This document shows, piece after piece, positions 1 to 27,319 of a DNA stretch of 64,000 nucleotides (the first letter of the stretch is position 1; the number at the start of each line of letters is the position of its first letter). The notes under the pieces were generated by a model. The model had not been told where the DNA came from. It did not search any database and saw only the letters and a program-made list of their open reading frames with translations. The stretch spans positions 3,412,001-3,476,000 of the forward strand of contig CM075994.1 of assembly GCA_038087875.1 (NCBI GenBank), written 5' to 3'. The DNA is from Malacoraja senta. Its lineage: Eukaryota. A program made the translations under genes and the position numbers.

Positions 1-251
1 ATTCTATTCTGAGAGCAATATGCCCTCAAATGTCTGATTGTGGAATGGCAGGTCCGGAAATGGTCCAATGTTTGCCTATTTATTATTATCTTTGCAAGCA
101 CGATTTCCTTCCTGTTAATTTATTTTACATTTCACGACAAATATTTTCATCAGACAAACTCCCGGAACCGCAGCGAATTTACATTACTAAATTTTGGCAT
201 GATATTTATTTTGGAAATATAATACTGCTTGTTGCAATTGTTTGATTTCAG

Positions 252-287
252 AAATAGAAAAACTTCGAAAAAGTTTACAGGATGCTG
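252..287 (+). CDS. micro-exon 36 nt, (E)IEKLRKSLQDA
   Basis: tttgatttcag|aaatagaaaaacttcgaaaaagtttacaggatgctg|gtgag. Confidence 0.85.
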
Positions 288-369
288 GTGAGCTATCATG
301 TCATGAATACTTTTCATCTTAAGTACTGCCCAATTTTATAACTCTTTCTGCATATATTTATGCAGGTAC

Positions 370-3300
370 TGTGACGCCTTCTTGTGGCCAAGCCACTTGT
401 TCTCGCACCTTCCATTGCCGAGCTGAAACTGGCGCGTGAGCTGGGTGGTGGAGAGATTAGACAAGAATGTGTCGAACGTTAACTTGTGTGCTATCCAACG
501 ACGGCAAGGACTTTGCTTAAATATTTACTGAATGTTCGTGAGTTCCTGGGCTGTAGTTAATAATAAAGATAAAGCTGTGTGCACAAAACTTCGACGTCCA
601 CAATGGTGACCCTGACGATCCAAAACGGTTTATTTTGGATGTTTGCCAAGTATGCAGCCGACAACACAAACCCAGCAAATTGCAGTGTACATAAAACTGC
701 CCGTGTTCTGGACATCACAGCCCCACGTGTGGTTCGAACAGGCTGAAGCCCAGTTCCACATTCGACAAATTAGGGACGACGCGACTAAATATTACTACGT
801 TGTCAAAGCGCTGGAGCAGGACACCGCCGGTCGCCTAATTTATTAGCTTCGCCAGCCACCAGCTGCAGGCATGTACGAGGTCCTCAAAATGCACCTGTTG
901 CGCACTTTTGGTCTCTGCTGCCACAACAGAGCCGCCATACTCCTTCACATGGTTGACACCGGCGCCGCAAGTCAAATGCCCGCCTTGCTGAACGGCCACG
1001 ATCCCTGCCTCCTGTTCGAACAGATTTTCCTCGAACTGATGCGTGATGACATTTGCCTGCTCCTCGCTGACGAGCATTTCACCGACCCCGGCCTGGTGGC
1101 TGCCCGTGCGGACGTGCTGTGGCAGAAACAGCAGGGTGGCGCCACCAACAGTCGAGCGTCGGCGGTGCCACCGCGGGTAAAGCGGCCGGTCGCAGCCTCC
1201 ACCGAAGGCAAAGGCAGTGAGGCGGGACACGAGCGCCGCCGGCAAAGGTACGTGGTGCTACTACCACCAAAGGTGGGGTTCCGAAGGTCACCGATGCCAA
1301 CCACCCTGCGCGCATCCCGGAAACGCCTCATCCGGCCGCCATTAGTGGCTATTGCGGCCTGCCAGAAGCATCGCCTCCTCTGCACATGGAACCGTCATTG
1401 AGGATGGCGTTTTCTCGTAGACACGGGAGCAGAGGTCAGCGTTTTGCCCCATTGGGAGCTAACAATCGTTCCGGTACGAGGGGACCTTCTCTGACCGCCG
1501 TCAACGGCAGCAACATCAGGACGAGTCCGCACGAACCCATTCACTTTCGACTCCAGTCACTTCACCTGGCCTTTCACTATTGCAGACGTCTCCCAACCGC
1601 TGCTGGTCGGCGTGAAGGGCATACGTCTCGTCCATTCTGAGACGTTCGTGTCGATCGCTTTGCGCCAGTCTGACTTGACTGCTCCGCATCTCGGCTCGGT
1701 GACTTCCTCCGATTACGAGTACGCCCGCATCTTGCCTATTTCCCCGACATCCTATCCCCCAGTTCACAACGGCCAGCCCCAAGCATGGGGTAAAGCCATA
1801 TCCCCAACACCAGACCGACACACCATGCACGTGCATGCAGGCTGCCCCCGGCCATGCTCCAACCGGCCAAGGACGAGTTCCGCAGGATGGAGGAAATGTG
1901 CATTGTGCGCCGCACAGACAGGCCTTGGGCATCTCCGTTCCACATGGTCCCCAAAGCATCTGTGGTCTAGAGACGTCACAGCGGCCGACCGGTACCCTGT
2001 CCCTCACATCCAGGAATTCACGGTCCATCTGGCCGGCGCCAAGTTTTTTTTCTTCTAAAATCGACATGGTACGTGGCTACCATAAAAATTCCAGTCTACC
2101 CGGACGGCATCCCCAAAATGGCTATCATCACCTCCTTCGAGCTCTTAATGTTCTACTGGATGCCTTTCGGCCTCAAGAATGCTGCTCAGGCTTTCATATG
2201 GCTTATGGACGGTGGGCCGCGGGCTGGATGTCCTGTTCATTTACTTTGACGACATCGTCGTCGTCAGGCGCTCTCGCCAGGAGCACCGCGCACACCTCCG
2301 GGGGGCTCTGCCAGCGGCTCAGCGAGCATAGCCTGGCCATCAATCTTGCCAAGTGTCAGTTTGACCTCACTTCCATCAGATTCCTCGGCCACCACATGGT
2401 GCGGTCCCGCTCCCGTACAAGGTTGTTCGCCAGTTTCCGGTGAGGGGACTCCAAGCGTTTGTCGGCATGGTGAATTTATATCACCGCTTCGTGCCAACAG
2501 CCGCCAGGACCATGCAAGCGCTGCTCAAAGTCCTGGACAGCAAGCACAGAGACCTCGTTTGGGACGATGCCCCCACGACAGCTTTCAACAACGCCAAAGT
2601 GGATTTTGCAAAGGCGACGATGCTGGTCCATCCACGGGTCAACGTTCCAAACGCTCTCGTGGGTGACACATCTGGCACAGCCATGGGCGAAGTGCTGCAA
2701 CAACTGATTTGTGGAACCTGGCAGCCCTTTGCCTTTTCCAGTGGTCAACTGAGACCTCCCGAGCGCTTTTGACCGGGTGCTCCTTGCGCACTCCCTGTGC
2801 ATCTGGCATTTCTGCAACTTCTTCGAGGGCATGGGTTTCACGGCTTACACCGATCACAAGCCACAAGCCGCTGTACTTTGCTTTTTCGAAGGTGTTTGAT
2901 ACCTGGTCATCCCGGCAGTAGCGTCACTTGACCTACCTCTCTGAGTACACGACTTGCGTTCAGCACATCGTTTGAAAGAGCAACCGGATGGCAGATGCGT
3001 TGTCCCGCACCACCATGAATGCCATCCGCGATTTGGCCCCATGCATCGACTTCAGGGCCCTAGCGACCGCATAGCGAGAAGATGAGGAGATGCTCACATA
3101 ACGTACCGCCATCTCAGGCCTTTTGTTGGAGGATGTGCAATTCTGGCGCGCTGATACCACGCTCTTTTGTGACGTATCTACCGGACAGCCGAGACCCATC
3201 ATCCCCGCAGTTTTACGCCGCCCGATTTTCGACATGGTTCATGGTTTGGCTCACCCTTCCATACGGGCGGCAACAGCTATCGTGGCAGCCAAGTATATGT

Positions 3301-4823
3301 GGCACGGGTTGCGCAAGCAACATGAGCGGAAATCTCTGGGGGACGGGGAGACACGTCCCCTCCATGTTTTGAGAGGTGTGGGACAACCCCACCCCCCCCC
3401 CCCCCCACACCCCCCCCCCCCACCCACAATGTTTGCTAATCCGGATTTTGAAATTCGGTTAAAAAAAGATCCATTAAAAATCTCCGATTTCCGCAAGAGA
3501 GTGGGGGTGGGACTGATGATCGAGGGCGCCGATTGGACGAGAGAGACGTCGGTCAGCACGCAAGGGGTGTGGGACATGATGATTCAGCGCGATGATTGTA
3601 GGAGGAAGGTGTCAGTCAGAGGCGGAAGTAGAGGGTGGGTGCGACTGCGTGAACCGCTGTCAAAAGTCGAATGACCAACATCACCTCAAGGCGCCCTTCC
3701 AGGATTACGCCCTGCCACACCGGCGTTTCGACCATAACCACGGGACCTCTGTCGATACCGTTTGACCTCTGCATCCATCCAGACGTGTCACCCACTGTCT
3801 CACCATCGTGGTCCGATTTAAGAGACGACCGGAAGCCGTCCCGCTCTTGTATACCTCCGCTGCGACGTATGCACGTGCCTTCACTGCCGTCTGGATCGCC
3901 TATTTTGGTGTGCCGGTGGACATCTCTTCCGGCAGAGGTGCGCAGTGCACCTCTGAGTTGTGGTCAGCAGTGTTCCGGCTGCTTGACCCTCAGCTGCACT
4001 ACACTACGGCCTACCACCCGCAAGTCAACGGCCGAATAGAACGTTTTCACCGTAACCCGAGGCCATATTTAAAGGCACAGTTCACGAGCCCGGACTGGGT
4101 GGACGAATTGCCGTGGGTCATGCTGGGCATACGCACTGCCCCGAAGGAGGACCTGGCAACTTCCTCGGCCGAACTGATGTTCAGCGCTCTGGTAAAGGTC
4201 CACGGGGTTTACATCCCGGAGGCAGATGGACATCAGAAACCACGCACGACCATCCTGACGCGCCTCGAGGGATAGGTGTGCACGCTCTCTCCCGTCCCGA
4301 CGTCCTGCCACGGACTTACCCTCACGCACGTCCCACCCGCCCTCACAGACTGTCAGTAGGTGTTCCTTCGCCGCGATTCTTACCGTACGCCACTGCAAAT
4401 GTCATTCGAGGGACTGGCATCTCGTCTTTTGTAATCAACATGGGCGGAAGGCACGAAACTGTTTCTATGGACAGTCTTAAGTCGGCACATTTGGGCATGG
4501 ATGCGCCAGTGCAGGTTGCACATCCCCGCCGTAGAGGGCGCCCACAGTTTCGACCGCATCTGCCCTTAACTCTGCCGTTTGTGACCCCGAGCACGGGGAG
4601 GTGTATAGGAGATCAGGTCGCCTCGTTCGTGGACCTACTCGCCTCCATTACTCCGGTTCTGTGTGTGTGGGGGGGGGGTGTTATGTGGCGCCATCTTGTG
4701 GCCAAGCCACTTGTTCTAGGATCATCCATCGTCGACCTGAAACTTTCGCCTGAGCTGGGTGGTGGGGAGATTAGAGAATAAGGAGTCGAAGGTTAACTGT
4801 TGTGCTATCGAACGACGGCAAGG
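370..4823 (+). mobile_element. Degenerate Ty3/Gypsy LTR retrotransposon
   Basis: 5' LTR TGT..CA 370-602; tRNA-Trp-like PBS TGGTGACCCTGACG at 604; gag KLPVFWTSQPHVWFEQAEAQF; protease FLVDTGAEVSVLP near 1409; RT DRYPVPHI and YFDD; integrase TTAYHPQVNGRIERFHR; G-run PPT then truncated 3' LTR from 4684; many stops and frameshifts. Confidence 0.92.
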
Positions 4824-5646
4824 TATATATGTTTTTTCCAGTCAACTGTGAGCACTACCGGCTACAGTGATTCTTGAAAGATCACTAATATTTCCTTCAT
4901 AATCTGTAAAACAACCTCTTTCAGAGCACTGGGATGTAATCCATCTGGTCTAGGTGCAGGGTCGGATCTAGATGAAGAGAGGCCCTAAGTTGTTCCACTT
5001 GTGAGGCCCCTACGAATCCCCCAACCCACGACTAGAGGAAGATGGTCCACCAGATTGACACCGATTTGCAGCCGAGCGTGGCCAATGAGATAAGGGGCTG
5101 GAAAGCTGCGTTTTTAGTTTATATATTGTAAGTGCTAGTGTCGAGTTATTGGCTTAAAACACTATTATTCTGAAATGGAGGGAAAGTAAAATTACTGAAG
5201 GGTTATTTAGAGACTACAGTGCGTTGTGACAGCATATGTAAGAAATGACTATGACAGTGTCAAAAATATTATACATCTTGAAACAGGACTCTCACTTTTT
5301 TTTTCTCTGATGTCATCCGGGCAACCTTGGCACCTTTTTAGTTGCCAAATGACATAGGTGGTCATTTAAGACGGCTTGCATGACGCGTGTGATAATATGC
5401 TCGGACGAAGTGCGTAGTTACCAGTCGGAATTATGGTCAATGAAGCATTCACATATTATTTCTGCTTCAAATAAAGTCACAAACTAAACATATTCACCGA
5501 TCAAGACATGATATATACCACAATGACATGCAGCAAAATTATAATACAGTATCTCAACTCTTTTTACACGTTGCAATTAATGCAATTTCTATTATTTCTT
5601 TCCACTTCCAAAGAAAAATGTGGTTGGATTATTCAGCCTGTGATCA

Positions 5647-6390
5647 ACCTCGGTGAGACCAAGCGCAGGCTTGGCAATCGCTTCGCACAACATCTGCACC
5701 CAGTTTGCAATAACCAACCTGATCCCCCGGTGGCTCAACACTTCAACTCTCCTTCCCATTACGAATCCGACCTTTCTGTCCTGGGCCTCCTCCATGGCCA
5801 GAGTGAGGCCCACCGCAAATTGGAGGAACAGCACCTCATATTTACTTGGGTAGTTTACACCCCGGCGGTGTGAACATTGGCAGCTCTAATTTCAGGTAGT
5901 CCTTGCTTTCTCCCTCCTTTCCCTCCCATTCCCAGCTCTCCTACAGCCTACTGTCTCCGCCTCTTCCTTTCTTTTTCGTGTCGCCCTCTACGACATCAAT
6001 CTGAAGAAAGGTCTCGTCCCGAAACGTCGTCTATTCCTTCGCTCCATAGAAGCTGCCTTACCCGCTGATTTTTACCAGCTTTTTTGTCTACCAATGTGAT
6101 CCCACCACTAGCCACATCATCACATCTCCTCCCTGTTGGCTTTCCCCAGAGACCGCTCCCTCCGTAACTCCCTGCTCACTTCGTCCCTTCCCATCCAAAC
6201 CACCGCCTCTCCAGGCACTTTTCCTTGCAACCGCTTGTCGCTTTTACCTCCCCCCTTGACTCCATTCAAGGACCAAAGCAGTCTTTCCAGGTGCGGCAGA
6301 GGTTCACCTGCACCTCCTCCTACCTCATCTATTGCATCCACTGCTCTAGGTGTCAGCTGCTCTGCATCGGTGAGACAAAGCGTAGGTTTG
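5647..6390 (+). mobile_element. Penelope-like element fragments (GIY-YIG end plus pLTR; resumes at 9999-10030)
   Basis: GETKRRLGNRFAQHL..PVAQHFNSPSH; hammerhead-like CTGAAGA..GAAAC near 6001-6025. Confidence 0.85.
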
Positions 6391-9300
6391 ATACATAGAT
6401 ACATAGATACATAGAAAATAGGTGCAGGAGTAGGCCATTCGGCCCTTCGAGCCTGTACCGCCATTCAATATGATCATGGCTGATCATCCAACTCAGTATC
6501 CCGTACCTGCTTTCTCTCCATACCCCCTGATCCCTTTAGCCACAAGGGCCACATCTAACTCCCTCTTAAATATAGCCAATGAACTGGCCTCAACTACCCT
6601 CTGTGGCAGAGAGTTCCAGAGATTCACCACTCTCTGTGTGAAAAAGTTTTTCCTCATCTCGGTCTTAAAGGATTTCCCCCTTATCCTTAAGCTGTGACCC
6701 CTTGTCATGGACTTCCCCAACATCGGGAACAATCTTCCTGCATCTAGCCTGTCTAACCCCATATGAATTTTGTACGTTTCTATAAGATCCCCTCTCAATC
6801 TCCTAAATTCTAGCGAGTATAAGCCAAGTCTATCCAGTCTTTCTTCATATGAAAGTCCTGACATCCCAGGAATCAGTCTGGTGAACCTTCTCTGCACTCC
6901 CTCAATGGCTATAATGTCCTTCCTCAGATTTGGAGACCAAAACTGTACGCAATACTCCAGGTGTGGTCTCACCAAGACCCTGTACAACTGCAGTAGAACC
7001 TCCCTGCTCCTATACTCAAATCCTCTTGCTATGAAGGCCAACATACCATTCGCTTTCTTCACTGCCTGCTGCACCTGCATGCCTACTTTCAATGACTGGT
7101 GTACCATGACACCCAGGTCTCGCTGCACCTCCCCATTTCCTAATCGGCCACCATTTAGACAATAGTCTGCCTTCCCGTTTTTGCCACCAAAGTGGATAAC
7201 CTCACATTTATCCACATTATACTGCATCTGCCAAACATTTGCCCACTCACCCAGCCTATCCAAGTCACCTTGCAGTCTCCTAGCATCCTCCTCACAGCTA
7301 ACACTGCCCCCCAGCTTAGTGTCATCCGCAAACTTGGAGATGTTGCTTTCAATTCCCTCGTCCAGATCATTAATATAAATTGTAAATAGCTGGGGTCCCA
7401 GCACTGAGCCTTGCGGTACCCCACTAGTCACTGCCTGCCATTGTGAAAAGGACCCGTTTACTCCTACTCTTTGCTTCCTGTTTACCAGCCAGTTCTCTAT
7501 CCAATACCGTGTGATTTAAGTTTGTATCCTAATCTCTTATGTGGTACCTTGTCGAAAGCCTTCTGAAAGTCCAGATACAACACATCCACTGGTTCTCCCC
7601 TATCCACTCTACTAGTTACATCCTCGAAAAATTCTGTAAGATTCGTCAGACACGATTTACCGTTCGTAAATCCATGCTGACTTTGTCCAATGATTTCACC
7701 ACTTTCCAAATGTGCTGTTATCCCATCTTTAATAACTGACTCTAGCAGTTTCCCCACTACCGATGTTAGACTAACTGGTCTGTAATTCCCCGTTTTCTCT
7801 CTCCCTTCTTAAAAAGTGAGGTTACGTTTGCTACCCTCCAATCCTCAGGAACTACGCCAGAATCTAAAGAATTTTGAAAAATTATCACTAATGCATCTAC
7901 TATATCTGGAGCTACTTCCTTAAGTACTCTGGGATGCAGCCTATCTGGCCCTGGTGATTTATCGGCCTTTAATCCATTCAATTTACCCAACACCACTTCC
8001 CGACTAACCTGGATTTCACTCAGTTCCTCCATTTCCTTTGACCCGCGGCGCCCTGCTATTTCCGGCAGATTATTTATGTCTTCCTTAGTGAAGACGGAAC
8101 CAAAGTAGATATTCAATTGGTCCGCCATATCCTTGTTCCCCATGATCAATTCACCTGTTTCTGACTGCAAGGGACCTACATTTGTTTTAACTAATCTCTT
8201 TCTCTTCACATATCTATAAAAACTTTTGCAGTCAGTTTTTATGTTCCCTGCCAGTTTCCTTTCATAATTTATTTTCCCTTTCCTAATTAAGCCCTTTGTC
8301 CTCCTCTGCTGGTCTCTGAATTTCTCCCAGTCCTCTGGTATGCTGCTTTTTCTGGCTAATTTGTACGCAACATCTTTTGCTTTGATACTATCCCTGAGTT
8401 CCCTTGTTATCCACGGATGCACTACCTTCCCTGATTTATTCTTTTGCCAAACTGGGATGAACATTTTTTGTAGTTCATCCATGCAGTCTTTAAATGCCTT
8501 CCATTGCATATCCACCGTCAACCCTTTTAGAACTAATTGCCAGTCAATCTTGGCCAATTCACGTCTCATACCCTCAAAGTTACCTTTCTTTAAGTTCAGA
8601 ACCGTTGTTTCTGAATTAACAATGTCACTCTCCATCCTAATGAAGAACTCAACCATATTATGGTCACTCTTGCCCAAGGGGGCACGCACAACAAGTCTGC
8701 TAACTAACCCTTCCTCATTACTCAATACCCAGTCTAGAATAGCCTGCTCTCTCGTTGGTTCCTCTATATGTTGGTTTAGATAACTATCCCTCATACATTC
8801 CAAGTAATCCTCTTCCTCAGCACCCCTGCCAATTTGATTCACCCAATCTATATGTAGATTGAAGTCACCCATTATAACTGTTTTGCCTTTGTTGCACGCA
8901 TTTCTAATTTCCTGTTTGATGCCATCCCCAACTTCACTACTACTGCTAGGTGGCCTGTACACAACACCCACCAGCGTTTTCTGCCCCTTAGTGTTTCGTA
9001 GCTCCACCCATACCGATTCCACATCCTCCAAGCTAATGTCCTTCCTTTGAACTGCGTTAATCTCCTCTCTAACCAGCAACGCTACCCCACCTCCTTTACC
9101 TTTCTCTCTATCCCTCCTGAATATTGAATATCCCTGGATGTTCAGCTCCCAGCCTTGGTCACCCTGGAGCCATGTCTCCGTGATCCCAACTATATCATAA
9201 TCATTAATTGCTATCTGCACGTTCAACTCATCGACCTTATTACGAATGCTCCTTGCATTGAGACACAAAGCCTTCAGGCTTGTTTTTACAACGCTCTTAC

Positions 9301-9998
9301 CCCTTATACAATTATGTTGGAAAGTGGCTCTTTTTGATTTTTGCCCTGGATTTGTCTGCCTGCCACTTTTACTTTTCACCTTGCTACCTATTGCTTCCGC
9401 CCGCATTTTGCACCCCTCTGTTTCTCTGCTCACCCATTTAAGAACCCCACCACCTCTTATACTCTGTTTATTATTGTTTTCTTCTTTCCCCCTACATGTT
9501 GGGTCTGAGTGCTTTCCTTCTCTGCCTCCTGCCTCACACACTGTCTAATAGCATTCTCTATTTGAGTCCCTCCCCCCAACCATTCTAGTTTAAAGTCTCC
9601 CCAGTAGCCTTTGCACATCTCCCCGCCAGGATATCGGTCCCCTTCAGGTTCAAGTGCAACCCATCCTTTTTGTACAGGTCGAACCTTCCACAAAAGAGGT
9701 CCCAATGATCCAGAAATTTGAATCCCTGCCTTCTGCACCAGTCCTTCAGCCACGCATTTATCCTCCACCTCGCTCCATTCCTACTCTCACTGTCGCGTGG
9801 CACAGGCAGTAATCCCGAGATTGTTACCTTTGCTGTCCTTCTCTTTAACTCCCCTCCTAACTCCCTAAATTCTCCTTTCAGGACCTCTTCTCTTTTTTTA
9901 CCTATGTCATTGGTACCTATATGTATCACGACTTCGGGCTCCTCTCCCTGCCCTTTCAGGATGTCTTGGACACGTTGAGACACATCACAGACCCTGGC
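6391..9998 (-). mobile_element. Young 5'-truncated CR1 LINE (partial esterase ORF1; ORF2 with small deletions near 7502 and 7800)
   Basis: APE motifs NARSIRNK, GDFN, SDH; RT DFQKAFDKV, GVPQGSVLGP, FADD; (TCTATGTA)n tail. Confidence 0.97.
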
Positions 9999-11484
9999 TT
10001 CGCCCAACACCTCCGCTCGGTCCGCCACCTCCAGTTTAAATTTCATTTAGTATATTTATGGAGGACCAGGAAACCAGAAGCAAGTGTTACTCCAGGGAGT
10101 TACTCCAGATCCAGGGTCAGGGAGTGATTCTGCGTTGGTTTTCAGCGATCGCGGCGAGGCGGCGACCCGACGCCAATGGCGGCCATGGCAGTGCGCATGC
10201 GCAGGGCGGCCGATGATGCGCTGGCCGTGGTTGTGCGCAGGTGCAGGGGTAGGATGCGCTGGCCGTAGCAGTGCGCATGTGAAAGGCGGCCTGCCTTGCC
10301 GGCGGATGAGAAGCGAGCGGTGAGCGGAGACCCGGCGGCCCGGACACGGATACGGATGGCGTGCGGAGACGGAGAGTTGAAAGACAGAGAGATGGACAGG
10401 GGGACCGGCCCAGAGTTGAACGGCAAGTGTCCTGCCTTGGCCGCAGGCCGCCTAGATTTCGAGGCCCTAGGCTTCTGCCTATGAAGCCTAGTGGTAAATC
10501 CGGCTCTGTGAGACCCCCCTAGATATTGAGGCCCTAAGCTTAAGCTTGTCAAGCTTATACGTAAATCCGGCCCTGTCTAGGTGACTTATATAACTTAAAA
10601 TATTTCAGCTGAACAAGCATCTTCTCCGTAGTGATAGCGACTCCGGTAACTTCTTCCCCCTGATATTATTGGATCTCAGTTACGTTGCTGGTAGCTTCCG
10701 CTGTGTACTAGCGGCCCCTACACCGACCCCTGTGAAAAGAACATATTAATTAATTTGTCATTTCTTTATTCATCATTGTTACTACCCCAGCGTAATTTTC
10801 CAGCGATTCAATGTCCACTCCAGCCGCTCTTATAATCTTTAAATATCCGAAGAAACATTTGCTATCCTCTTTTACATTATTGGCTACAAGGATTTCATTT
10901 TTTTCATATTTAATCTTTCCTTCCCTTATTTGCATCTTAGTAACCGTCTGCTGGTTTCTAAAGGCTTCCCAGTCCTTTAGCTTCCCACTATTATTGCCAA
11001 TATTGTATGCATTGTCTCTTAGTTTTATGCTGCCTTTGGCTTTCTTTGGCAGCCACTGTCGTCTCATTCTCCCCTTGTCATCTTTCTTCCTCTTTGGGAT
11101 GACAAGACCCGGCGTCTTCCCCACACTCTTAGCATTGCCGCTCCACCGTCATTCCTGATGGGGGCCCTTTACAATTAACTTTGACCAGCCATTCCTACAT
11201 GCTTGTATATTTACCTTTACTCATTATTACATTACATATGATTTATTACAGATACATATGATTTCATCTTCTCCCTCTAAAACTGTGTTGAAGTCAAATA
11301 AAGTTGAATTCTGCCATACTATGGTCACTGCCTCCGAGGGGTTCATTTTCCTTAAGCTCCGTATCAAATCCGGTTCGTTACACAACACCAAATCTAGAAT
11401 TGCTTTTCCTCGCGTGTGGTCGACTACAAGCTGCTGTTAGAAGCCATATCGTAGGCACTTTAGAAATTCCTCTCTTGGGATAGA

Positions 11485-12250
11485 AGCATAGAAACATTGA
11501 AAATAGGTGCAAGAGTAGGCTATTCGGCTCTACGAGCCACACCGCCATTCAATATGATCATGGCTGATCATCCAACTCAGTATCCTGTACCTGCCTTCTC
11601 TCGATACCCCCTGATCCCTTTAGCCACAAGGGCCACATCTAACTCCCTCTTAAATATAGCCAATGAACTGGCCTCAACTACCCTCTGTAGCAGAGAATTC
11701 CACAGATTCACCACTCTCTGCGTGAAAAAATGATTTTCTCATCTCGGTCCTAAAAGACTTCTCCCTTATCCTTAAACTGTGACCCCTTGTTTTGGACTTC
11801 CCCAACATCGGGAACAATCTTCCTGCATCTAGCCTATCCAACCCCTTAAGAATTTTGTAAGTTTCTATAAGATCCCCCCTCAAACTTCTAAATTCTAGCG
11901 AGTACAAGCCAAGTCTATCCAGTCTTTCTTCATATGAAAGTCCTGACATCCCAAGAATCAGTCTGGTGAACCTTCTCTGTACTCCCTCTAAGGCAAGAAT
12001 GTCGTTCCTCAGATTAGGAGACAGATGCAGTAGAACCTCCCTGCTCTTATACTCAAATCCTTTTGCTATAATGCTAACATACCATTCGCTTTCTTCACTG
12101 CCTGTTGCACCTGCATGCCTACTTTCAATGACTGGTGTACCATGACACCCAGATCTCGTTGCATCTCCCCTTTTCCTAATCGGCCACCATTCAGATAATA
12201 GTCTACTTTCCTGTTTTGCCACCAAAGTGGATAACCTCACATTTATCCAA
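11485..12250 (-). mobile_element. CR1 3' fragment
   Basis: LEGVQRRFTRLI..GLSYEERLDRLGLYSLE and CR1 3' UTR. Confidence 0.92.
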
Positions 12251-12402
12251 GTACCACTAAAGATTACATTGATCCAGTACCACCCTAACTTTCCAAGTCT
12301 ACTTGCATACTCAAAGCCCCATGAACAGTATGACATTGTCTTACTTACAGGAGAATATATCTCCTGATGTAATCTGTACCCTGCATTCTGGCTACTGTTT
12401 GG

Positions 12403-12759
12403 AGGCTTGTATATAACCACCTTATACATTGTACATAATCGTCTTTTTCCCCTGAGGTTTGACTTAATCCGAACGGTTTCGTGCAAATTCCTTTAAAATT
12501 ACTACCGAACAATCGTCTCATCAGTGTCCATGTTCTGCCAGGGGCTGAACAATAATAATAAGGCTTGTATATAAGGCTTATTATTATAATATATTACTAC
12601 AATATAAGGCTTGTATATAACCACCTTATACATTGTACATAATCGTCTTTTTCCCCTGAGGTTTGACTTAATCCGAACGGTTTCGTGCAAATTCCTTTAA
12701 AATTACTACCGAACAATCGTCTCATCAGTGTCCATGTTCTGCCAGGGGCTGAACAATAA
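12403..12759. repeat. 153-bp direct duplication with 51-bp AT-rich filler
   Basis: 12403-12555 matches 12607-12759. Confidence 0.9.
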
Positions 12760-13027
12760 ACAGCTATGCACAATGCACACATTACATTCATCCATTAGAC
12801 TTAAACCCGTGTCGTGATAATTCAACATTTTGTAACATTTCGTTTGAGTGCCCCAGCTGCTACTGTTTTAGAGCACACCGGAAGCAACGCGCCAGGGTCA
12901 ATTCTGCATTTTCTTTCAATTCCTGAGGTTTATGTTTTCATGCGTTATCAATAATTATTAATGTTAATGTTAAACGCCTAAGTGCATGTAAACTCAAGAT
13001 TTACCAAAGTACAATACTCCATTGCAG

Positions 13028-13054
13028 AAAGCGTCTTGCAAAAAAAAGATCAAG
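13028..13054 (+). CDS. micro-exon 27 nt, ESVLQKKDQ
   Basis: ctccattgcag|aaagcgtcttgcaaaaaaaagatcaag|gtgaa. Confidence 0.85.
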
Positions 13055-13331
13055 GTGAACGTGACGACATTTCTATATTCTGTTCTGAGAGCAATATTAA
13101 ATGACTTCAAATGTTTGATTGTGGAATTGCAGGTCCGGAAATGGGTCAATGTTTGCCCATTTATTATTAATCTCTGTAAACGCGATTTCCTTCCTGTTCA
13201 TTTGTTTTACATTTCACAACAAATCATTTCATCAGAGAAAACTCCGAAATCGCAGCGAATTTAGATGACTAAACGTTGCCATGATATTCTTTAGCAATAA
13301 AATACTGCTTGTTGCAACTGTTTGTTTTCAG

Positions 13332-13367
13332 AAATAGAAAAACTGCGAAAAAGTTTACAGGATGCTG
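13332..13367 (+). CDS. micro-exon 36 nt, EIEKLRKSLQDA (paralog of 252-287)
   Basis: tttgttttcag|aaatagaaaaactgcgaaaaagtttacaggatgctg|gtgag; differs from 252-287 by one synonymous change (CTT/CTG). Confidence 0.87.
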
Positions 13368-13449
13368 GTGAGCTATCATGTCATGAATACTTTTCTTCTT
13401 AAGTACTGCCCAATTTTATAACTCTTTCTGCAAATATTCATGCAGCTAC

Positions 13450-14310
13450 TGTAACGCCATCTTGTGGCCAAGCCAATTCATCTGGAACCTTCCTTGTCGA
13501 GCTGAAACTGTTGCGTGAGCTGGGTGGTGGAGAGATTAGTGAAGGAGTCGAACGTTAACTGGTGTGCTATCCAACGACGGCAAGGACTTTGCTTAAATAT
13601 TGACTGAATGCCCGTGAGTGCCGGAGCTGTATTTATCAATAAAGGCACAGCTGTGTAAAGAAATCTTGGACCTCCACAGTGGTGACCCTGATGATCCAAA
13701 ACGGTTTATTCTACATTTTTGCCAAGTATGCAGCCGCCAAACACAGATGCAGTTTGCATCAAACTGCCCGTTTTCTGGACATCACAGCCCACGTGTGGTT
13801 CGAACACGCTGAAGCCCACTTCCACATTCGACAATTTACGGCCGATGCGACTAAATGTTACTACGTGGTCAGTGTGCTGGACCAGGACATCGCCGGTCGC
13901 TTAATTGATTACCTTCGCCAGCCACCAGCTGCAGGCATGTACGAGGGCCTCATAAAATGCTCCTCTTGCGCCGGGACAGGGCACCCAAACTCCTTCACAT
14001 AGATGGCCTCAGTGACCGCAAGCCGTCCATGCTTGTGAATGAAATGTTCCCCCTTGCTGAACGGCCACGTGCCCTGCTTCCTACTCGTACAGATTTTCCG
14101 CGAACTGATACCTGGACGACATTCACCTGCTCCTCGTGGACGAGGATTTCACCGACCCCCACCGGGTGGCTACCAATGCGGACGTGCTGTGGCAGGCGAT
14201 ACGACAGGGTAGTGCCACCATCAATCGCTTGTCGGCGGTGCCTCGTCGGCTCAAGTGGCCGGTCCCAGCCTCGAGCGAAGACACGGCAGTGTGGCCGGCC
14301 ACGAGCGACG
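13450..14310 (+). mobile_element. Gypsy 5' LTR, PBS and partial gag; duplicate of the 370-1240 insertion
   Basis: LTR 13450-13678, PBS at 13680, same gag motifs, same insertion site downstream of the duplicated exon. Confidence 0.9.
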
Positions 14311-15566
14311 TTGGAACTGTATGTATTAATAAAGACACAGATGGGTACACAAAACGTGGACCTTCACAGTAGTGTAGTGTCACAGTGTAAAGAGGGAACA
14401 ACGTCTATCCAAACCTGGCTTTGTGCTTACTTGCTTTCCCGACATCGGATGTTCAACGAAGTTAACGTTGACTTGATGTGACACTATTTATTATGCACTA
14501 TCCCGTAAAATGTTAGGGGGTGAGCGCCTTGCCTTTACAGTTAACATTCTCTGGTTTAATATAAGACTTCAACACAAGGTGTTTGAATGCCAAATTGTTG
14601 TTCTCTATTTGATAATGTGAATTCCTACTTTTACTACGATGACCTTTTTTAATATTCTCCATAAATGCGATGCCGTTCCTTGACAAACAAAAACGCTGTC
14701 CAGAAGGCTCATTAAGGAGACCGCGGCATTTTTCCCAACCTTATGACTGTCACAAGCAATCTCTGAAAACATTTAACTTCCCTATTTGCACACAAATTTC
14801 TTAGATTAGGTTGTAAAACATGATTTGAAATTCACGACCTTCAGCGATCAGTAAAATTATTGATATTGGCATTGTTATGATAAAGGTTCTCGGGAAAGCA
14901 AACAGCCCGCGTTCAACATCAGACATGTGACGCTTTTCATTGAACTCTGCGTCATTTAATAGGCGGCTCGATGTTCCGCTTAGTTATAGAAGCATTAAGA
15001 ACTAAAATTACGTGAACTTTGCATGGATTGTCTACTATCATAAGTCAAGGGATAATTTCTTAATTTTAATATGGTCTGTAAACTGTTCGTACCAGTTGCT
15101 CAGCACGATGCTTCAGGTATCATATGCAGCGCTGATATCCTGTCCGTTTATTTAGTTACTTGTAGTTCTTCGCTTTGTAATTCCTTCAGACGTAATAAAC
15201 GACTGACATTTTTGCCCAGAGCAATAACATTGAAATGCGATGTCCAACTAAATAGCGCGCCATAATTCAACATAATGGCAAAATGTGGAATGTTATCCGA
15301 AACATTGATACGTACATTTAATTGACCCAGCGAAGGCGGTGGGATACTATTTGCATTGGCTTAGTTTCCACGTCTGATCAATCAGCTCCAAAGACTATTA
15401 ATTTCTCCCACCGCCTCCCGTCGTCCTATCAATGAACTGTTCGTGTCACTAAAAATCCACTTATCTTATGGCGACATGATCCAAGCTGTGAATTTATGAA
15501 TTAACTTTATTTAACTTCAGCGCTTGTTATATTCAGATATGAATCGAATAATTACGTTGATGGTCA

Positions 15567-19061: not shown

Positions 19062-19088
19062 AATTTAACATCCGTAAAAAGGAATCAG
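19062..19088 (+). CDS. micro-exon 27 nt, EFNIRKKES
   Basis: ttttttttcag|aatttaacatccgtaaaaaggaatcag|gtaat. Confidence 0.85.
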
Positions 19089-19622
19089 GTAATCGGGATG
19101 AAATTATTACTCCACTTGATGTCATTGCTAATGTTGAAATTCGTGTGTGCAATGGCAGGGAAATCACATTGCATTCAAAATCATCTTATATTACCTGTTT
19201 GGGTAATAATCCCGTGCCCAGTGAAAATAGTACAGGTGCATTACGAAAACGCACAGAAAATTGATTTGCATACTATGAAAATAGGCTTGCATACTTTGCA
19301 GCCTATAATAAATATGTTAGCATGTTGGGAAGTAGGAAAAAAGCTGTGTAAAACCAAAATCTGCGTTCGTAGAATTAGAAGTGATGAATCACAATGAAAC
19401 CGGAATAATAGAAACGAGAGAACAGTAGCAACATGAAAATAAAATAAGGATTTGATAAAAGAATATAAATATGATAAATTGCCTGCTGAAAGCAAGTGAA
19501 ATAATGAACAAAGGCTGGCTTATTAAGATGGATTGTCTGACAATGAAAAGCGACCTCTAAAGTTAAAAAAGGTAACCATACCAATAATTTTCGATGACTT
19601 ATTATTACTAATATTATTCCAG

Positions 19623-19649
19623 ACATGTCTGATCATTTGAAAACCGATG
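19623..19649 (+). CDS. micro-exon 27 nt, DMSDHLKTD
   Basis: attattccag|acatgtctgatcatttgaaaaccgatg|gtgagt. Confidence 0.85.
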
Positions 19650-20158
19650 GTGAGTAACGTGATATGTTGAGTAGAAGTAAAGTAAGAAATTGTATCAACG
19701 TTATTTTGCTCTGAAAACACAACTCTGCAATTGTAATTTCTCGCATTTTAATCACTTATTTGAATCAATTTCCACGTCCTGTCAATGTTGTTACCTACAC
19801 AGTTACTCAATTAACTCCTTTCGTTTTACCCTGGTTAACTACAATAAACCAATTTTCAAAATCTAATTTCCCCTTCCCTGTGCATCTTCGAATGTTCAGT
19901 TTCTACGTTCATAATACATGGCGAAACAAAGTATTACTTTCACATTAGCAATGAAATGATTATGCTTAAATAGACTGTGGTTATTTTTTTACATTTATCA
20001 CCGCACCCCCTACGTTGCAGAAGACAACATTTATTAAATACGGAAAACACACACGCCATAAAAAAGCAGTATGCCCTTTTCTTTGCATTGAAGTCACCTT
20101 CAAAAAAATCAGAAACTAGAACTTTATTGTCAATACAAAAAATGTGTTGATCATACAG

Positions 20159-20185
20159 ACCAGAAGCTTAAAGAAGCACAATCGG
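20159..20185 (+). CDS. micro-exon 27 nt, DQKLKEAQS
   Basis: tcatacag|accagaagcttaaagaagcacaatcgg|gtaagt. Confidence 0.82.
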
Positions 20186-20959
20186 GTAAGTCCTCGAATT
20201 TGTTTGATATTTCCGCCAAGAAAACTTCAAATTATGTCGTTCGATGGCGGTCTTCTTAAAAAACGATAGGTTATCGAAAATTGCAATGATGAATTTTCCA
20301 CGCAACTCCACCGAATAAATTAAAAGATATGATCATTTTGAAATTAGCAGTAGAACTTTAAAAATGGCAAATCACAGATGTTCCCGCAAAGAAAAGTTTG
20401 ATTTTCGCACTCCTATGGGAAGCAGACAATCAATTTGTGCGCAGGCTCAATTAACGTCTTAAAATCAATATAGCGTAAGGTCATACGCAAATAGAATCGC
20501 ATGCTTAAGTTTTCACCCATAACAGCAAGTTGAACATTGCAGTAGCAAACTGCAATATTGAATTTAAATACGGGGCGCTGGGCTGTAAGAGTTGATTTCA
20601 ATATTGTTTCAGATCATATCATTCTATTTCCATTTGCTCCGTCTAAGCCATGCCGAGTGTTACAGCAATTCCAACAATCGTCCCCATCTACTTAATTCCC
20701 ATTTCGAACAAATGGGCACTCCTTAATTCTCTTTTCACACATCGACCCAACTTACACGTTACCAAATGTTCCAAAAAGAGGTCATTTTATGTGATGTAGG
20801 AGAAAACCGAATACAAGCAGTAAACCGAAAAGTAATTTCGCATCATGAAAAAACGATAGTTTTGCGAGATTTCCAAGTTGCGAACATTTCCATTCTTTGG
20901 TAACTTGTTTTTGTGACTTATAAATGGACGGAAAGTGATCGAAGCATATATATTTCCAG

Positions 20960-20995
20960 AACTCCTGCAATTAACGGCAATTCGAGCGGATCTCG
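20960..20995 (+). CDS. micro-exon 36 nt, ELLQLTAIRADL
   Basis: tatttccag|aactcctgcaattaacggcaattcgagcggatctcg|gtgag. Confidence 0.85.
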
Positions 20996-21110
20996 GTGAG
21001 CCAATGTTATATATTTTGTGCAATATAAAACTGTCAGTAAAGACGTTAGATTTTTCTTGTTATCGAAGTATTTTGACGGATTTTTCAAAAGATCCTTGTG
21101 GTTGAAGGAA

Positions 21111-21446
21111 ACATACATAGATACATAGAAAATAGGTGCAGGAGTAGGCCATTCGGCCCTTCGAGCCTGCACCGCCATTCAATATGATCATGGCTGATCA
21201 TCCAACTCAGTATCCCGTACCGGCCTTCTCTCCATACCCCCTGATCCCCTTAGCCACAAGGGCCACATCTAACTCCCTCTTAAATATAGCCAATGAACTG
21301 GCCTCAACTACCCTCTGTGGCAGAGAGTTCCAGAGATTCACCACTCTCTGTGTGAAAAAGGTTTTCCTCATCTCGGTCTTAAAGGATTTCCCCCTTATCC
21401 TTAAGCTGTGACCCCTTGTCCTGGACTTCCCCAACATCGGGAACAT
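21111..21446 (-). mobile_element. Young CR1 3' fragment
   Basis: Near-identical to the 3' end of the 38251-42008 copy. Confidence 0.95.
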
Positions 21447-22303
21447 ACAGCGGGCAGCGAATGTGTTTATACTACGGTGAATTATTCAAAATATTTAAAG
21501 CACATATTATAATGAAAAACATAATCATGTTCATGAAATTCGGTAGGCCTATGCTAATTCTTACGCCTTCTCGACATTGGAAGATCGAACAATCAATGCG
21601 ATCACCTCACTGAGATAAAACATCTAACTTCTGCGACCCATTTTGAAAGGATGCTGCATTAATTTTCAGCATTTTTTAAAAACTCAGCTGCCCCTTCCCT
21701 TAATTACAGCCATGCTTACTGCAATATTGCTGCTCAAATTTGTTGCTCATTTGAAGATGTAGATAGTTGATTGTCTCTATTTAATATTTCGCTGCAATAC
21801 ATTTTACTGTTCGCGACTCACATTTCTCTCTGCACTCCTCGCCGTCCACTGTTCGAATTGACGGGTCTTATCGTCCTTCCTTTATTTTGTCTTGCTTTTG
21901 AAATGCTTCTGGACAACTCTGAACTTTTCAATGACAACGCCGAACTGTGACGTGCTTGTTGTTACTTTCGGAAGTTGAAGCACTCTCTTTGATAAGTTCA
22001 AACACCCCACTATCCACCATTGTTAATTCGCCAACCGACCATTACCATGCCATTTTATTTACTCCAGAATCCTCAACATTAGCTTTTACGTTAATAGAAT
22101 TGCATCCTTTACAGCCAAAAAGAGAAAGGACGTTGAGTCATGCTATCGCTAATTGATATTTAAACGTTTTAAAACTCTGAACACGTGACCTCCCTTACGG
22201 AATACCTTACAATACCTGTTGTCTTGCAATGCACTTTGAATAAATTAGATGAATTCCTACATTTCCTTTACTTACTTTCCTAGTTATGTGTCCATTCTCA
22301 CAG

Positions 22304-22330
22304 AGAAATTGCTACTTATAAAGAATGAAG
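22304..22330 (+). CDS. micro-exon 27 nt, EKLLLIKNE
   Basis: tccattctcacag|agaaattgctacttataaagaatgaag|gtaaa. Confidence 0.83.
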
Positions 22331-23687
22331 GTAAACAAACGCTATATTCAAAGTTAATTCTTCAGTGAAATGTAATTGGTAATCCATCTCCTTTAGTGAC
22401 TTTGTCAAACAGTTATGGCGGATTGGCAACTCTTTGAACTCTTCCAATTTTTTTGTTTCAACCAAATTCGATAAAACTTGGAGCATCATAGCACTTTCGC
22501 ACTCTTACACTACATTTTGGGGCTAATTTCGTCGCGAGATCCTATATATTCCTGCCCATCGAAAACAGATTCAAAGTAAAGACCGAAAGAAATCAGAAAT
22601 AAATTCATGTGAGCATTTGATCGTGATGAATGCTTTTATTCTGAATAACAAATAACAAGCCAGTATCACGATAACCCAAGTATTTTGATTTAAAAAGAAT
22701 CTTAGAGTATATCTTGGCGTATATGGCCAAAAGCTGAACCTTTTTCTTCTACAAGTTCCATTCAAAGTTGAGAACACTGTGTGGATTATACTGCTATCAG
22801 ACTATGATTTATCAGTGTAACACAGTACTTACAGCTTTCTCTGCTGACTTCGAAGCGGAATAATAAGGTATTCAATGGGCTGCAGCTTTTATCCAATAAT
22901 CACTTTATTTCTGATTAATAGTTGTACAAAGAGCCATAGGAAATTCGGTGAGAAAAAGGGAACACGTCAAACATTAGAAAATTACTTTTCCGGATTTTCC
23001 CTGCCTTTATTGATAGAGGCAGTTCCAAGCAATAACACCAACTGAATTGTCATGCACTTAAAACATAATGAAAGTAAACTGCCACTGCAATTCTGCCGTT
23101 TTGTTAATAATTCAATTGATGTTGATATCAAGGGTGCTATTATTGCATTTCAATTATCGTTCATTTCACCAATTTCCCTTGCTAGTTTCTCAGTGTATCA
23201 GATAATCACAGACATTGATCAGTTGATTAAAAAAAGTCAGTGAGCTTTCAAATTTTATTAAGATGTTCATACTTCGGCAGACAGTGCAGTGAGCCTCTGG
23301 CTGACTCAACCACTCATCACATTTCGCGTTGAGCCCCGCTCCTCGACATTAAAGGCTTGGCGAGCCCGAGCCTTGGTTGCGAGACAGATCACAGGTGAGG
23401 TCCCTGGCCGTGGAAACATTACGCACGTTCCTTATGGTTGGCATAGGCACTAACAATGAATTCAATCAACACATGCAATTGACAGAATTATAATTAACAC
23501 TCTGACTACATCAAGATTCCAGCATTTGTAGTTTCTTGTCCCTCCAGTATTGGCCTTCGTATGACAAATGGATATTGTATTCAATAGAAGGGGATATTGA
23601 TCTGAGCATGGTTCGCCATATTCTGCAAATTAATTTTCAAGCAAAACGCACGTTATTTCCCACAGTATGTGTTTTATTTGTTGGCAG

Positions 23688-23714
23688 AAGTTAAAGAACT
23701 AAAGAAAAATAATG
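23688..23714 (+). CDS. micro-exon 27 nt, EVKELKKNN
   Basis: ttttatttgttggcag|aagttaaagaactaaagaaaaataatg|gtatgt. Confidence 0.83.
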
Positions 23715-24256
23715 GTATGTAACAACTCGAGAATGGTTGCATCGACGAACTGTTCGGGACAGTCGGCTTCTATATTATTTTGGGGTATACAGCAAGGAAA
23801 ATGCTGATGGAGCTGCAGCTCTAGACCAGAGAATGTCCAGAAAATGTTTTCAACGGGCTCTTCAACTATAAGCGTGTGTATTGCAATCCTATTCATGCGA
23901 ATACAGGCGGTGAGTTACGAAAACACGTATTTTTTATTCTTACTTGTCATATATTTCAATTATCAGCCCTTAAGCATCCAATGATGTAAAGGAAACTTTT
24001 AAATTATTTATTACGATTTAACATATTTTAACTCACAATTATTTATAGCCTTGGCACGTGTTGCGGTGAGAGCGCCGTTCTAATAATGCGAAACATGCTC
24101 AACTCCAACTGCGTGTCAAAGAGGCATTGGGACAATGCCACGGTATGGACTCATTACCTACCGATCGCGTACAAATTTCTGGACATCCGTTGGCCTCTCA
24201 TTTCCATGCTCACGAGCCCAGAAAAGAAGCGCGCAATTGACGGTTAAAATTGTGGA

Positions 24257-24693
24257 ACCCCCACAATTAAAATGTGGATAATGGAAATTTCGGAGACCCT
24301 ACACCTGGAAAGAATCAGATTTGTCTTAATGGACAAACAAGAACTTTTTGTTAGAATATGGTCTCCATTCATTGACTATTTGAAGGGGTAGATCGGTTCG
24401 GCACGGGAACCTAACTGAAGCTTGAACTTAGGATTAGATGAAAAGTTATACTTTATAACCTACGAACCTATCTTCAAATTATGTATTATTAGTAAATCAT
24501 TCCACTCTTTATTTAAATCTTGACATTTGTGATTTTTTTCTCTCTTTCTTTCTTACGTTCTATCTATTAAAAAAAAACTAGAAGCAGTATCAATCCACAA
24601 TTGATAATATTAATAATGTATGGTTGATATACATGAAATGTTTTACCATAATATGTTTTTGCTTCTAATAAAAATAATGTTTTAAAAAATAAC
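24257..24693 (+). mobile_element. 5'-truncated L1-clade LINE 3' end
   Basis: WIMEISETLHLERIRF..FVRIWSPFIDYLKG* resembles an L1 ORF2 C-terminus; A-rich tail; TSD AAATTGTGGA at 24247-24256 and 24694-24703. Confidence 0.75.
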
Positions 24694-24910
24694 AAATTGT
24701 GGAGGCCTCATCACAAGGCGGGTCGACTCTAACTGAACAGGACGAAATAAAGTAGGTTATTGGAGTATTCATTTTCCAGTTATTCTTCCTCGGTTTAACA
24801 ATATGCTTCCCATTTGAGATTGCTTACCATTTGAGATGTAAATGTTTGTCGATCACGAATCGTTTAAAACAATAACAAAAAACATGATTGAACATTGTCT
24901 TCTTTTTCAG

Positions 24911-24934
24911 AATTGAAAGTAAACTGCATACCAG
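24911..24934 (+). CDS. micro-exon 24 nt, ELKVNCIP
   Basis: tcttctttttcag|aattgaaagtaaactgcataccag|gtaac; fills third slot of a four-exon module. Confidence 0.75.
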
Positions 24935-25660
24935 GTAACTATTTTCACGTGTTTATTTTTCTTTCCATTCTATCCAGTCTTCCTTGAATTTGTTCATTAT
25001 TATGAAACGAATCGACTCCATTAATTATTCTGGGATCATGAACGACAGCAATAACTCAGTAAAGGTTCAGTAAACTAAAGGCAAATGGATTAACGCATAG
25101 TAAATTAATATCTGAAGGCATAATTTGGTTAATTAATCACTTAATATTACATAGGAAGTAGAAATTACAGAAGTAATTTTCCCACCTATCGAAAAAACGG
25201 AAGAAAATTTGATCACGAAGTGTTAATACACATCAGCAAAGGCTGAACATAATCTGTTCACTTTCACCTAAATTACTCATTGGAAACGAATAAATTCCTG
25301 ATTAACTAAAAACGGCGATTAATATTATCCAGTACCAAGAAACTATTTCAAAACGCCTTAATCAACTAAAAGGAGGCATCAGCGATAGTTTGTTGTTAAA
25401 TTCCGGAGATCCAATCGGTAGATTACCTTGTCCTTCCACTCAGCTAGGCCCATCAATCAAGAGTCCACAGTTTTTCCACGGTAGTATTTACATTTCAGTA
25501 TTATTCGCACTCTCTGTGAACCCAATATCAAATTTGTCGATATCAAATTTCATTTTTTATATGCCTTGAAGTTATTGGACTGAAATTATGTTGACGCTTA
25601 TAATGTGACAACCTTCAAAGCACAGCCGAATGAGAATGATTGATCGATCATATTTTCCAG

Positions 25661-25696
25661 ACCGAGAAAAGCTCGAAGCTATTCAAAAAGATATCG
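25661..25696 (+). CDS. micro-exon 36 nt, DREKLEAIQKDI
   Basis: tattttccag|accgagaaaagctcgaagctattcaaaaagatatcg|gtaagt. Confidence 0.87.
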
Positions 25697-25847
25697 GTAA
25701 GTACACTCCAAACAATTGCTAAATATGCATTACTAATGATGTCCTGATGAGAGTACAATTCAACATGATGTTTTGAAGCCAGGTGTAACTGACTGAAATA
25801 GACACTTGAATTCCATTAATACTGTATATATTTTTACATGTTCACAG

Positions 25848-25874
25848 TGCAGCTGTTAGAGCTGAAAGATAAAG
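25848..25874 (+). CDS. micro-exon 27 nt, VQLLELKDK
   Basis: tgttcacag|tgcagctgttagagctgaaagataaag|gtaaa. Confidence 0.83.
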
Positions 25875-26496
25875 GTAAAAGTTATGCGGCCAAACATCAT
25901 GTGCTGAAACAGGTTGGATCAAAAATAATCGAGATATAGATAAGAAAAAAACAATAAAAAAGAGGATACTATAAAACAAAGTAAGAAAGTCATCCAAGGG
26001 GGAGATATTGCGATAAGTAGTATTAAGCTTATTGATTAAGATTAATTGATGTGGTATAACCACGATGAAGATAATTAAAGCGCTAATTATTAATAAAATG
26101 TTTTAAGATAGGGTAGAATTCGAACAAAATAACAATTATATAGTCGTTCTCTGATACGCCACTAACTGTTCATTCTCAGATAATTCAATGTGAGAAAGAG
26201 GAAACATACTGTAGCGGAATGCCATAGGGTGACGCCCTGAAATTAGGATACTGGATACCCGTTAACCCTGTAACAACCAGTTGAAACCCAATAGGAATTC
26301 GACGCATTTTCACCTTGCATTACTCACAGAAGTATGTAAGTCTGAATCGTAAAACGTTCATGCCCCATTACCACTGTAGGCTGTGGGAGGAGCATTGGTT
26401 GCAACATTTATTGTAATGCATGAAGGGGTGGGCGACAAAAGTTAAATTAATAGTAGTTATATTTGTTTGAATTAATATGCGGAATGGTTTCTTTAG

Positions 26497-26523
26497 AACT
26501 TGAAGAAATTCGTCGACAGAAGA
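26497..26523 (+). CDS. micro-exon 27 nt, ELEEIRRQK
   Basis: gtttctttag|aacttgaagaaattcgtcgacagaaga|gtaag. Confidence 0.83.
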
Positions 26524-27218: not shown

Positions 27219-27319
27219 GCACGTAATATAAAATGGCTTGGAAGATTAAAAAATGTAATTTCTGACAGAATGATACAAGGCACGAGAATACAGCTCAGAT
27301 TACAACACTACCATGAAGT

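Follow-up and report, generated by a model that had tools for sequence, protein, structure and literature searches.

The 64,000-nucleotide (nt) window analysed here (contig CM075994.1 of Malacoraja senta, assembly GCA_038087875.1, positions 3,412,001 to 3,476,000) carries an array of 23 candidate micro-exons of phase 1, among which two segments, designated copy A and copy B, share a 36-nt exon, its flanking introns and a decayed long terminal repeat (LTR) retrotransposon (Table 1). Fifteen of the candidates measure 27 nt and eight measure 36 nt. The same two lengths stood out when plus-strand AG..GT pairs were surveyed without training, with peaks at 27 nt (10 of 48 pairs) and 36 nt (6 of 48), compared with 0 and 1 of 31 pairs on the minus strand. 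The joined candidates would encode 230 residues, 72% of which are E, K, Q, R, L or D, and the other two frames contain 18 and 24 stops. Hydrophobic residues occupy columns 5 and 12 in all eight 36-nt exons, and the strongest hydrophobic period, 3.45, was reached in 21 of 2000 shuffles of the exon order. This value lies near the 3.5 of a coiled-coil rod, and the complete lack of Pro fits one. One 27-nt and one 36-nt exon together encode 9 + 12 = 21 residues, that is, three heptads; since such a module begins and ends in phase 1, its duplication would preserve both the reading frame and the register of the coil.

Table 1. Positions of the features discussed, in window coordinates (+, plus strand; -, minus strand;., no strand).
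Feature	Position	Strand	Basis or remark
Copy A intron before 36-nt exon	1..251	+	homolog of 13077-13331; homology extends upstream of window
Low-divergence block: exon and 65 nt of donor-side intron	246..352	+	2 mismatches / 107 nt
Copy A 36-nt phase-1 exon candidate (IEKLRKSLQDA), AG..GT	252..287	+	splice-pair scan
Decayed LTR retrotransposon of copy A (domain order Gypsy-type)	370..4823	+	self-BLAST, alignment, Pfam
Copy A 5' LTR	370-602	+	alignment
Copy A 3' LTR	from ~4685, cut at 4823	+	alignment; LTR end survives in copy B
Half LTR / mid-LINE junction	4823..4824	.	candidate 3' duplication breakpoint or later deletion; inference
Old LINE ORF2 piece, residues 460-504 of P0001	4835..4956	-	tblastn; match 4835-4969
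Later insertion into old LINE, short inverted ends, 8-nt flanking direct repeat	4957..10575	.	sequence
Old LINE ORF2 piece, residues 180-465 of P0001	10579..11472	-	tblastn
Copy B 27-nt phase-1 exon candidate (SVLQKKDQ), AG..GT	13028..13054	+	splice-pair scan
Copy B 36-nt phase-1 exon candidate, peptide identical to 252-287	13332..13367	+	splice-pair scan, alignment
Copy B element: 5' LTR 13450-13678, partial gag, internal deletion near 14310-14315	13450..14368	+	alignment, Pfam
Twenty further 27/36-nt phase-1 exon candidates	19062..62854	+	splice-pair scan
Further exon starts, first ten	19062, 19623, 20159, 20960, 22304, 23688, 25661, 25848, 26497, 28200		
Further exon starts, last ten	31197, 31341, 37603, 42677, 45253, 46660, 48834, 50505, 61615, 62828		
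LINE, long interspersed nuclear element; ORF, open reading frame.

A self-BLAST of the window matched positions 1-1238 (copy A) to 13077-14310 (copy B) in the same orientation, with 81.7% identity (E value 0.0), in agreement with the original prediction, made from the sequence of the first part of the window, which had paired 1 to about 1240 with 13077 to about 14310. Aligned globally, the two segments mismatched at 165 of the 1202 columns compared (13.7%). The intron upstream of the 36-nt exon differed at 34 of 249 positions (13.7%, three gap events, 19 transitions and 15 transversions), the LTR at 32 of 228 (14.0%) and the stretch from the primer-binding site (PBS) into gag at 94 of 607 (15.5%). 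The exon itself differed at 1 of 36 positions, a synonymous CTT/CTG change in a Leu codon, and both exon copies keep the flanking AG and GT, just as had been predicted. The accompanying statement that the intron and LTR copies hold many substitutions and indels suits the upstream intron and the LTR; it does not suit the downstream intron, where 4 of 82 positions differed and gaps were absent. Homologous introns thus surround adjacent exon copies on the same strand, which is the arrangement of tandem internal exon duplication, and the proposed duplication of an exon module on the kb scale is borne out by the 1.24-kb match between the adjacent copies. Among the 24 exon neighbourhoods of the window, only the A/B pair aligned at the intron level. 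A comparison of 4824-13030 with 14320-19100 gave no homology except two chance matches of about 20 nt. Judging from these alignments, A/B is the only duplication in the window young enough for its intron DNA to align.

In both copies the LTR starts 82 nt behind the 36-nt exon (370 and 13450). The shared element had been described as an LTR, which is correct as far as it goes, and the match also runs on into gag. Its organisation fits a Gypsy-type element: the LTRs end in TG..CA, a PBS-like TGG and a G-rich tract ahead of the 3' LTR are present, and the Pfam matches in copy A comprise the gag-like DUF7041 and RNase H (PF17919, in 2365-2769) ahead of an integrase zinc finger (PF17921, in 3102-3671, below the cut-off). 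No reverse transcriptase (RT) match was obtained with Pfam in the broken frames of copy A. The order of RNase H and integrase also fits BEL/Pao elements. Both copies are decayed. Copy B closes, past its internal deletion, with the terminal ~54 nt of the 3' LTR (14315-14368). The element is preceded by GTAC in copy A and in both copies of another organism (run X4, below), and in copy B by CTAC with GTAG behind it; these flanks form a candidate 4-nt target duplication that would match with one change each.

The element provides a time mark for the duplication. In a rival reading, the LTRs arrived as independent insertions at a preferred site in introns that had already been duplicated, or one was overwritten by another member of the family. 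The differences between the element copies are rich in transversions (10 transitions to 22 transversions in the LTR and 40 to 54 in PBS-gag, against 19 to 15 in the upstream intron), a bias at odds with an otherwise tidy picture, and other copies of the family exist in the genome (X1 record 7; X4 records 22 and 23). However, the insertion site is identical in A and B, and the element and the upstream intron are equally diverged. The gag differences fell at 15, 25 and 22 first, second and third codon positions, and 11 of 40 codons with a single change were synonymous; gag copies showing neither third-position nor synonymous excess have decayed neutrally, as expected without selection, whereas two active lineages would have produced a third-position excess. 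In addition, the 5' LTR of A is nearer to the 5' LTR of B (14/136) than to its own 3' LTR (21/139; the 5' LTR of B differs from the 3' LTR of A at 19/135), so the insertion is at least as old as the duplication. Independent insertion is largely refuted by these data, and we regard it as very improbable. They point to one insertion with duplication soon after, and the predicted order, LTR first and duplication second, is upheld by the identical site, by the neutral decay of gag and by both X4 copies, which span the intron-LTR junction.

To follow copy A beyond position 1 and to estimate the age of the duplication, we used public sequencing runs; contigs of 4 of the 12 listed runs were compared with 12760-13520 at 80% likeness, and one of the four, run X12, had no contig there. 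Run X1 is possibly the source of the assembly and is not independent, and its differences were read from the best-supported 40 of 174 rows. X1 record 1 represents copy B, with no difference over 12760-13375. X1 record 3, which spans 12893-13375 with 54 differing letters and 17 gap letters, represents copy A, since it agrees with it at 26 of 26 listed sites within 13077-13520; its gaps are the 5+1+2 letters seen in the window and a further 6+3 upstream. Upstream of position 1, copy A consequently continues for 184 nt or more, over the place of the 13028-13054 exon, with 19/175 divergence in this part. X1 record 2 (10% diverged) probably carries copy A to 12733 or beyond.

Runs X3 and X4 come from organisms B and C and from other studies. 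Each provided a pair of contigs covering about 12897-13215. One contig of the pair bears the marks of copy A (C at 13146, gap at 13169), and the other shares the gaps at 12799 and 12958. X4 records 17 and 21 show both copies bridging the intron-LTR junction; an X3 junction contig, one side of which is shorter than 31 letters, was left out of the count. The presence of two copies in these organisms refutes an assembly or haplotype artefact. Such an artefact would draw support from the possible identity of X1 with the assembly source; the 13.7% divergence between the copies and their placement on separate X1 contigs speak against it as well, and we consider it negligible. The ortholog distance (118/1273, 9.3%) was somewhat smaller than the paralog distance (126/1094, 11.5%; p=0.08). 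The duplication therefore predates the divergence of these lineages, if by a small margin only, and is fixed. An absolute date was rejected: with a rate of 7e-10 per generation from another species, taken from the available part of PMC10587355, Jukes-Cantor distances of 0.11-0.15 correspond to about 8-11 x 10^7 generations, too many for a literal reading, and say only that the event is old.

A third, older paralog was also detected, outside the window. X1 record 4 matches 13089-13239 (28/151 differences) and 13306-13393 (16/88) and has nothing over the LTR, and X3 record 14 and X4 record 20 have the same loose ends. Its interpretation as an empty insertion site was rejected, because the match stops at 13393, short of the site. 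The loose end in X4 completes the 36-nt exon, followed by GT, and encodes KQLLKES where copy B has RKSLQDA. By hand count, the last 22 nt of this exon differ at 11/22, whereas the intron differs by 18.5% (p=0.0008 for that exon piece, which was chosen post hoc; p=0.06 for the whole exon). The exon of the third paralog is thus no more conserved than its flank, and it retains the frame, the donor and the core Leu. The original prediction had described the array as an expansion caught in the act; this description does not survive, since both copies also occur in two other organisms (about 9.3% diverged) and an older paralog exists.

At the other end of copy A, the 3' LTR breaks off at 4823, where half of it abuts the interior of an old LINE. 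Such a join marks a rearrangement scar; 4823 is possibly the breakpoint of the duplication, and a later deletion would look alike. The LINE piece at 4835-4969 continues the piece at 10579-11472, and the two are separated by a 5.6-kb insertion (4957-10575) with ends CAGGG...CCCTG and an 8-nt direct repeat (4949-4956 / 10576-10583), which we take to be hAT-like from its features and in which later elements are nested; the young LINE at 6392-9998 lies inside it. The duplicated unit measured at least 5.2 kb, and about 7 kb if 4823 is the breakpoint.

Taken together, the data likely reflect a real and ancient tandem duplication within a gene, in which a three-heptad exon module was copied along with a retrotransposon that puts the events in order. 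The window would be the middle of a cartilaginous-fish gene whose product contains a long coiled-coil rod, encoded by phase-1 micro-exons that are symmetric and 27 or 36 nt long. An older duplication would have given rise to the third paralog of the 36-nt exon, now about 18% diverged; the LTR retrotransposon would then have inserted 82 nt behind the 36-nt exon; and soon afterwards a tandem duplication would have copied both exons (27 and 36 nt) together with the element, over no less than 5.2 kb and probably some 7 kb, with a break possibly inside the 3' LTR at 4823. The lineage would next have separated from organisms B and C, in which both copies are still present; the element of copy B would then have lost its interior, and further transposons would have entered. 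The copy would have been tolerated, and the rod become longer by one module in register, because of the phase-1/phase-1 frame and the three whole heptads. The two copies, their common insertion site, the neutral decay, the extension upstream, the occurrence in other organisms and the third paralog are observed; the breakpoint and the heptad argument are interpretive parts of this scheme.

Several points weigh against this reading or narrow it. An open, stop-free frame was part of the criteria by which the exons were selected. The splicing and expression of the exons are what we infer from candidates known here by their DNA letters alone. Pfam searches covered 96 ORFs of the window (94 of the 111 ORFs of at least 100 aa, plus two shorter ones, with repetitive and LINE-overlapping frames excluded) and returned transposon domains and two weak repeat matches only, with no B30.2, immunoglobulin (Ig), transmembrane or other host domain; the window is the middle of the host gene only. 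The exon copies showed no extra conservation relative to the downstream intron (1/36 vs 4/82, p=0.52). The copy A contig of X1 lacks three letters within 13020-13045, as judged by depth, and the small exon of copy A may be 24 nt long or damaged, its AG and GT lying outside the best-supported 40 of 174 rows. Finally, the proposed mode of rod growth would rest on one event plus the third paralog, the latter in the same or in a paralogous gene.

The comparison with the downstream intron bears on selection, which the original prediction had read from the exon pair. The exon was less diverged than the upstream intron (p=0.04), the LTR (p=0.04) and gag (p=0.02); against both introns together (1/36 vs 38/331) the difference gave p=0.08. 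A 36-column stretch with at most one mismatch is expected somewhere in the alignment by chance (p=0.99), and at one fixed place with p=0.033. Purifying selection read from the A/B exon pair alone is therefore weak and at best suggestive, and the array of 23 coil-like 27/36-nt exons is better evidence for the exons than the pair comparison. The low divergence near the 36-nt exon could also be due to gene conversion between A and B, or to a constrained or slowly mutating donor-side intron, rather than to protein selection. This explanation is quite possible, though on balance we do not favour it. The 107-nt block around the exon, 65 nt of which are intronic, has a permutation p of 0.0017, and the X3 pieces over 13303-13438 differed from copy B at 14/260 positions compared with 87/854 upstream (p=0.01), a pattern that fits constraint on the exon and donor-side intron jointly or a low local rate. 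At 13088 and 13182 (X4), and perhaps at 13030 (X1), both copies of one organism carry the same letter, not shared across organisms, which hints at conversion or parallel change. On the other hand, the exon has only a synonymous change, the distance to orthologs would not shrink through conversion between A and B alone, and the shared letters amount to two or three sites from the best-supported 40 of 174 rows.

The missing letters concern the small exon of copy A, for which a 27-nt paralog upstream of position 1 had been predicted. The homology of X1 record 3 spans the predicted place, and the only listed differences near the splice sites are at acceptor -4 (13024) and donor +6 (13060), among the best-supported 40 of 174 rows; the predicted length is less secure. 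If the three letters fall within the exon, the paralog has 24 nt, and if they fall within the intron it has 27 nt. Symmetric phase 1 keeps the frame with exons of 27 and 36 nt and with a small exon of either length in copy A. The missing letters nevertheless leave room for the view that one module is skipped, is used in mutually exclusive fashion or is decaying, so that the rod has not been lengthened, and the available part of PMC9741552 documents exons duplicated in tandem that are used in a mutually exclusive way. We consider this unlikely: a 3-nt loss preserves the frame, both 36-nt exons retain frame, peptide and splice sites despite about 14% divergence of their flanks, and both copies persist in organisms B and C, whose X3 and X4 contigs (two covering contigs per organism) have no gap over 13020-13071.

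Lengthening of the rod by tandem duplication would agree with a process that is well documented, to judge from the available parts of three reports on tandem (internal) exon duplication (PMC9741552, PMC12343006, PMC3342872). The present locus resembles these cases in its adjacent same-strand copies of exon and intron, and differs in that the unit comprises two exons and three heptads and that a co-copied retrotransposon orders the events. Symmetric exon phase maintains the frame in tandem exon duplication generally.

The closest working analogy is the chicken BG genes of the butyrophilin family. According to the accessible portions of PMC5938342 and PMC4046983, BG genes encode a long coiled coil from many small exons, their exon number differs among genes and alleles, unequal crossing-over and deletion have been proposed to change them, and variation of the tail is apparently selected. 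The same portions give BG exons as 21 nt (a few 18 or 24 nt) with one heptad each, whereas the exons here have 27 or 36 nt and kb-sized introns; none of the 48 plus-strand candidates measured 21 nt, and the 96 ORFs from this middle part of the gene revealed neither an Ig-V nor a transmembrane exon. Butyrophilins of jawed vertebrates, those of cartilaginous fishes among them, are described in the available text of PMC12841164 as having heptad repeats, varying in number, before B30.2, and mammalian butyrophilins in that of PMC5938342 as having few heptads only; the window, by contrast, encodes about 230 rod residues, with no B30.2 among the same 96 ORFs from the middle of the gene. Since 21-nt exons are lacking and no Ig, transmembrane or B30.2 domain was found in the 96 ORFs, the gene was not classed as BG or butyrophilin. 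No description of such a gene type in cartilaginous fishes was found in the literature covered, from which subscription journals are mostly absent.

A further-reaching reading is that the gene encodes a BG-like immune protein of cartilaginous fishes, the rod of which is an evolving surface that gains three-heptad modules by tandem duplication. Conversion, together with a splicing element conserved on the donor side, would keep young copies similar; older ones would be driven to diverge at their exposed positions, with the Leu core retained. We hold this to be doubtful as a whole, and the exon of the third paralog, with its 11/22 differences against 18.5% in the intron (post hoc p=0.0008), fits it. 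If it were true, the nested transposons would permit dating of the whole history of rod growth.

The duplication offers direct DNA evidence for the lengthening of a micro-exon coiled-coil rod, through a multi-kb copy of a two-exon module that preserves frame and heptads. It is ordered in time by the retrotransposon and was fixed before the three organisms split, and it lends indirect support to the reality of exons which, at 8-11 residues apiece, are too short for ordinary protein searches. The lengthening process itself is known, and the larger interest lies in the little-described type of host gene; the duplication is a clear but ordinary record of rod lengthening, not an ongoing event.

Some further observations concern the array. 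A trained exon scan, which is circular for the known exons and served only to seek missed ones, placed none of its top 55 plus-strand candidates within 288-13027 and, known ones aside, gave no candidate scoring above 13 between 287 and 13028. Two candidates were dropped: a hydrophobic 36-nt AG..GT stretch at 50612-50647, 71 nt behind the exon at 50505, which is not coil-like, is the least similar to the others and is maybe due to chance, and 39767-39793, which sits within a LINE and turns up again on the minus strand. The exons at 20960, 25661 and 42677 (20/36 nt identical) and those at 13028 and 31197 (19/27 nt identical) form subclasses, which suggest older multi-exon duplications whose introns can no longer be aligned. 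Two 27-nt exons are separated by an intron of 117 nt (31224-31340), a multiple of three; read-through of introns of this kind has been described for BG genes in the passages available.

Other observations concern the repeats. In the copy B element, the deletion at 14310-14315 fuses gag to the LTR end at a stretch of about 5 nt common to both parent pieces, and the integrase region of copy A contains an unrelated-looking insert with a poly-C tract (~3320-3670). An exact 153-nt direct repeat (12403-12555 / 12607-12759) just upstream of the intron of the 27-nt exon represents a very recent duplication or an assembly error. A second LTR element lies on the minus strand at about 50900-55800, with RT, RNase H and integrase matches; its 197-nt direct repeats (50946 and 55579) are 91% alike. 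Minisatellites with periods of 48 nt and 40 nt occupy 56020-56372 and 56756-56984. Two young LINE copies, 6392-9998 and 38377-42008, are 97.6% alike in opposite orientation and contain a GDSL/esterase-like ORF1 piece, endonuclease and RT, and the best named relatives of a LINE of the window belong to a ray (86%) and a shark (73%).

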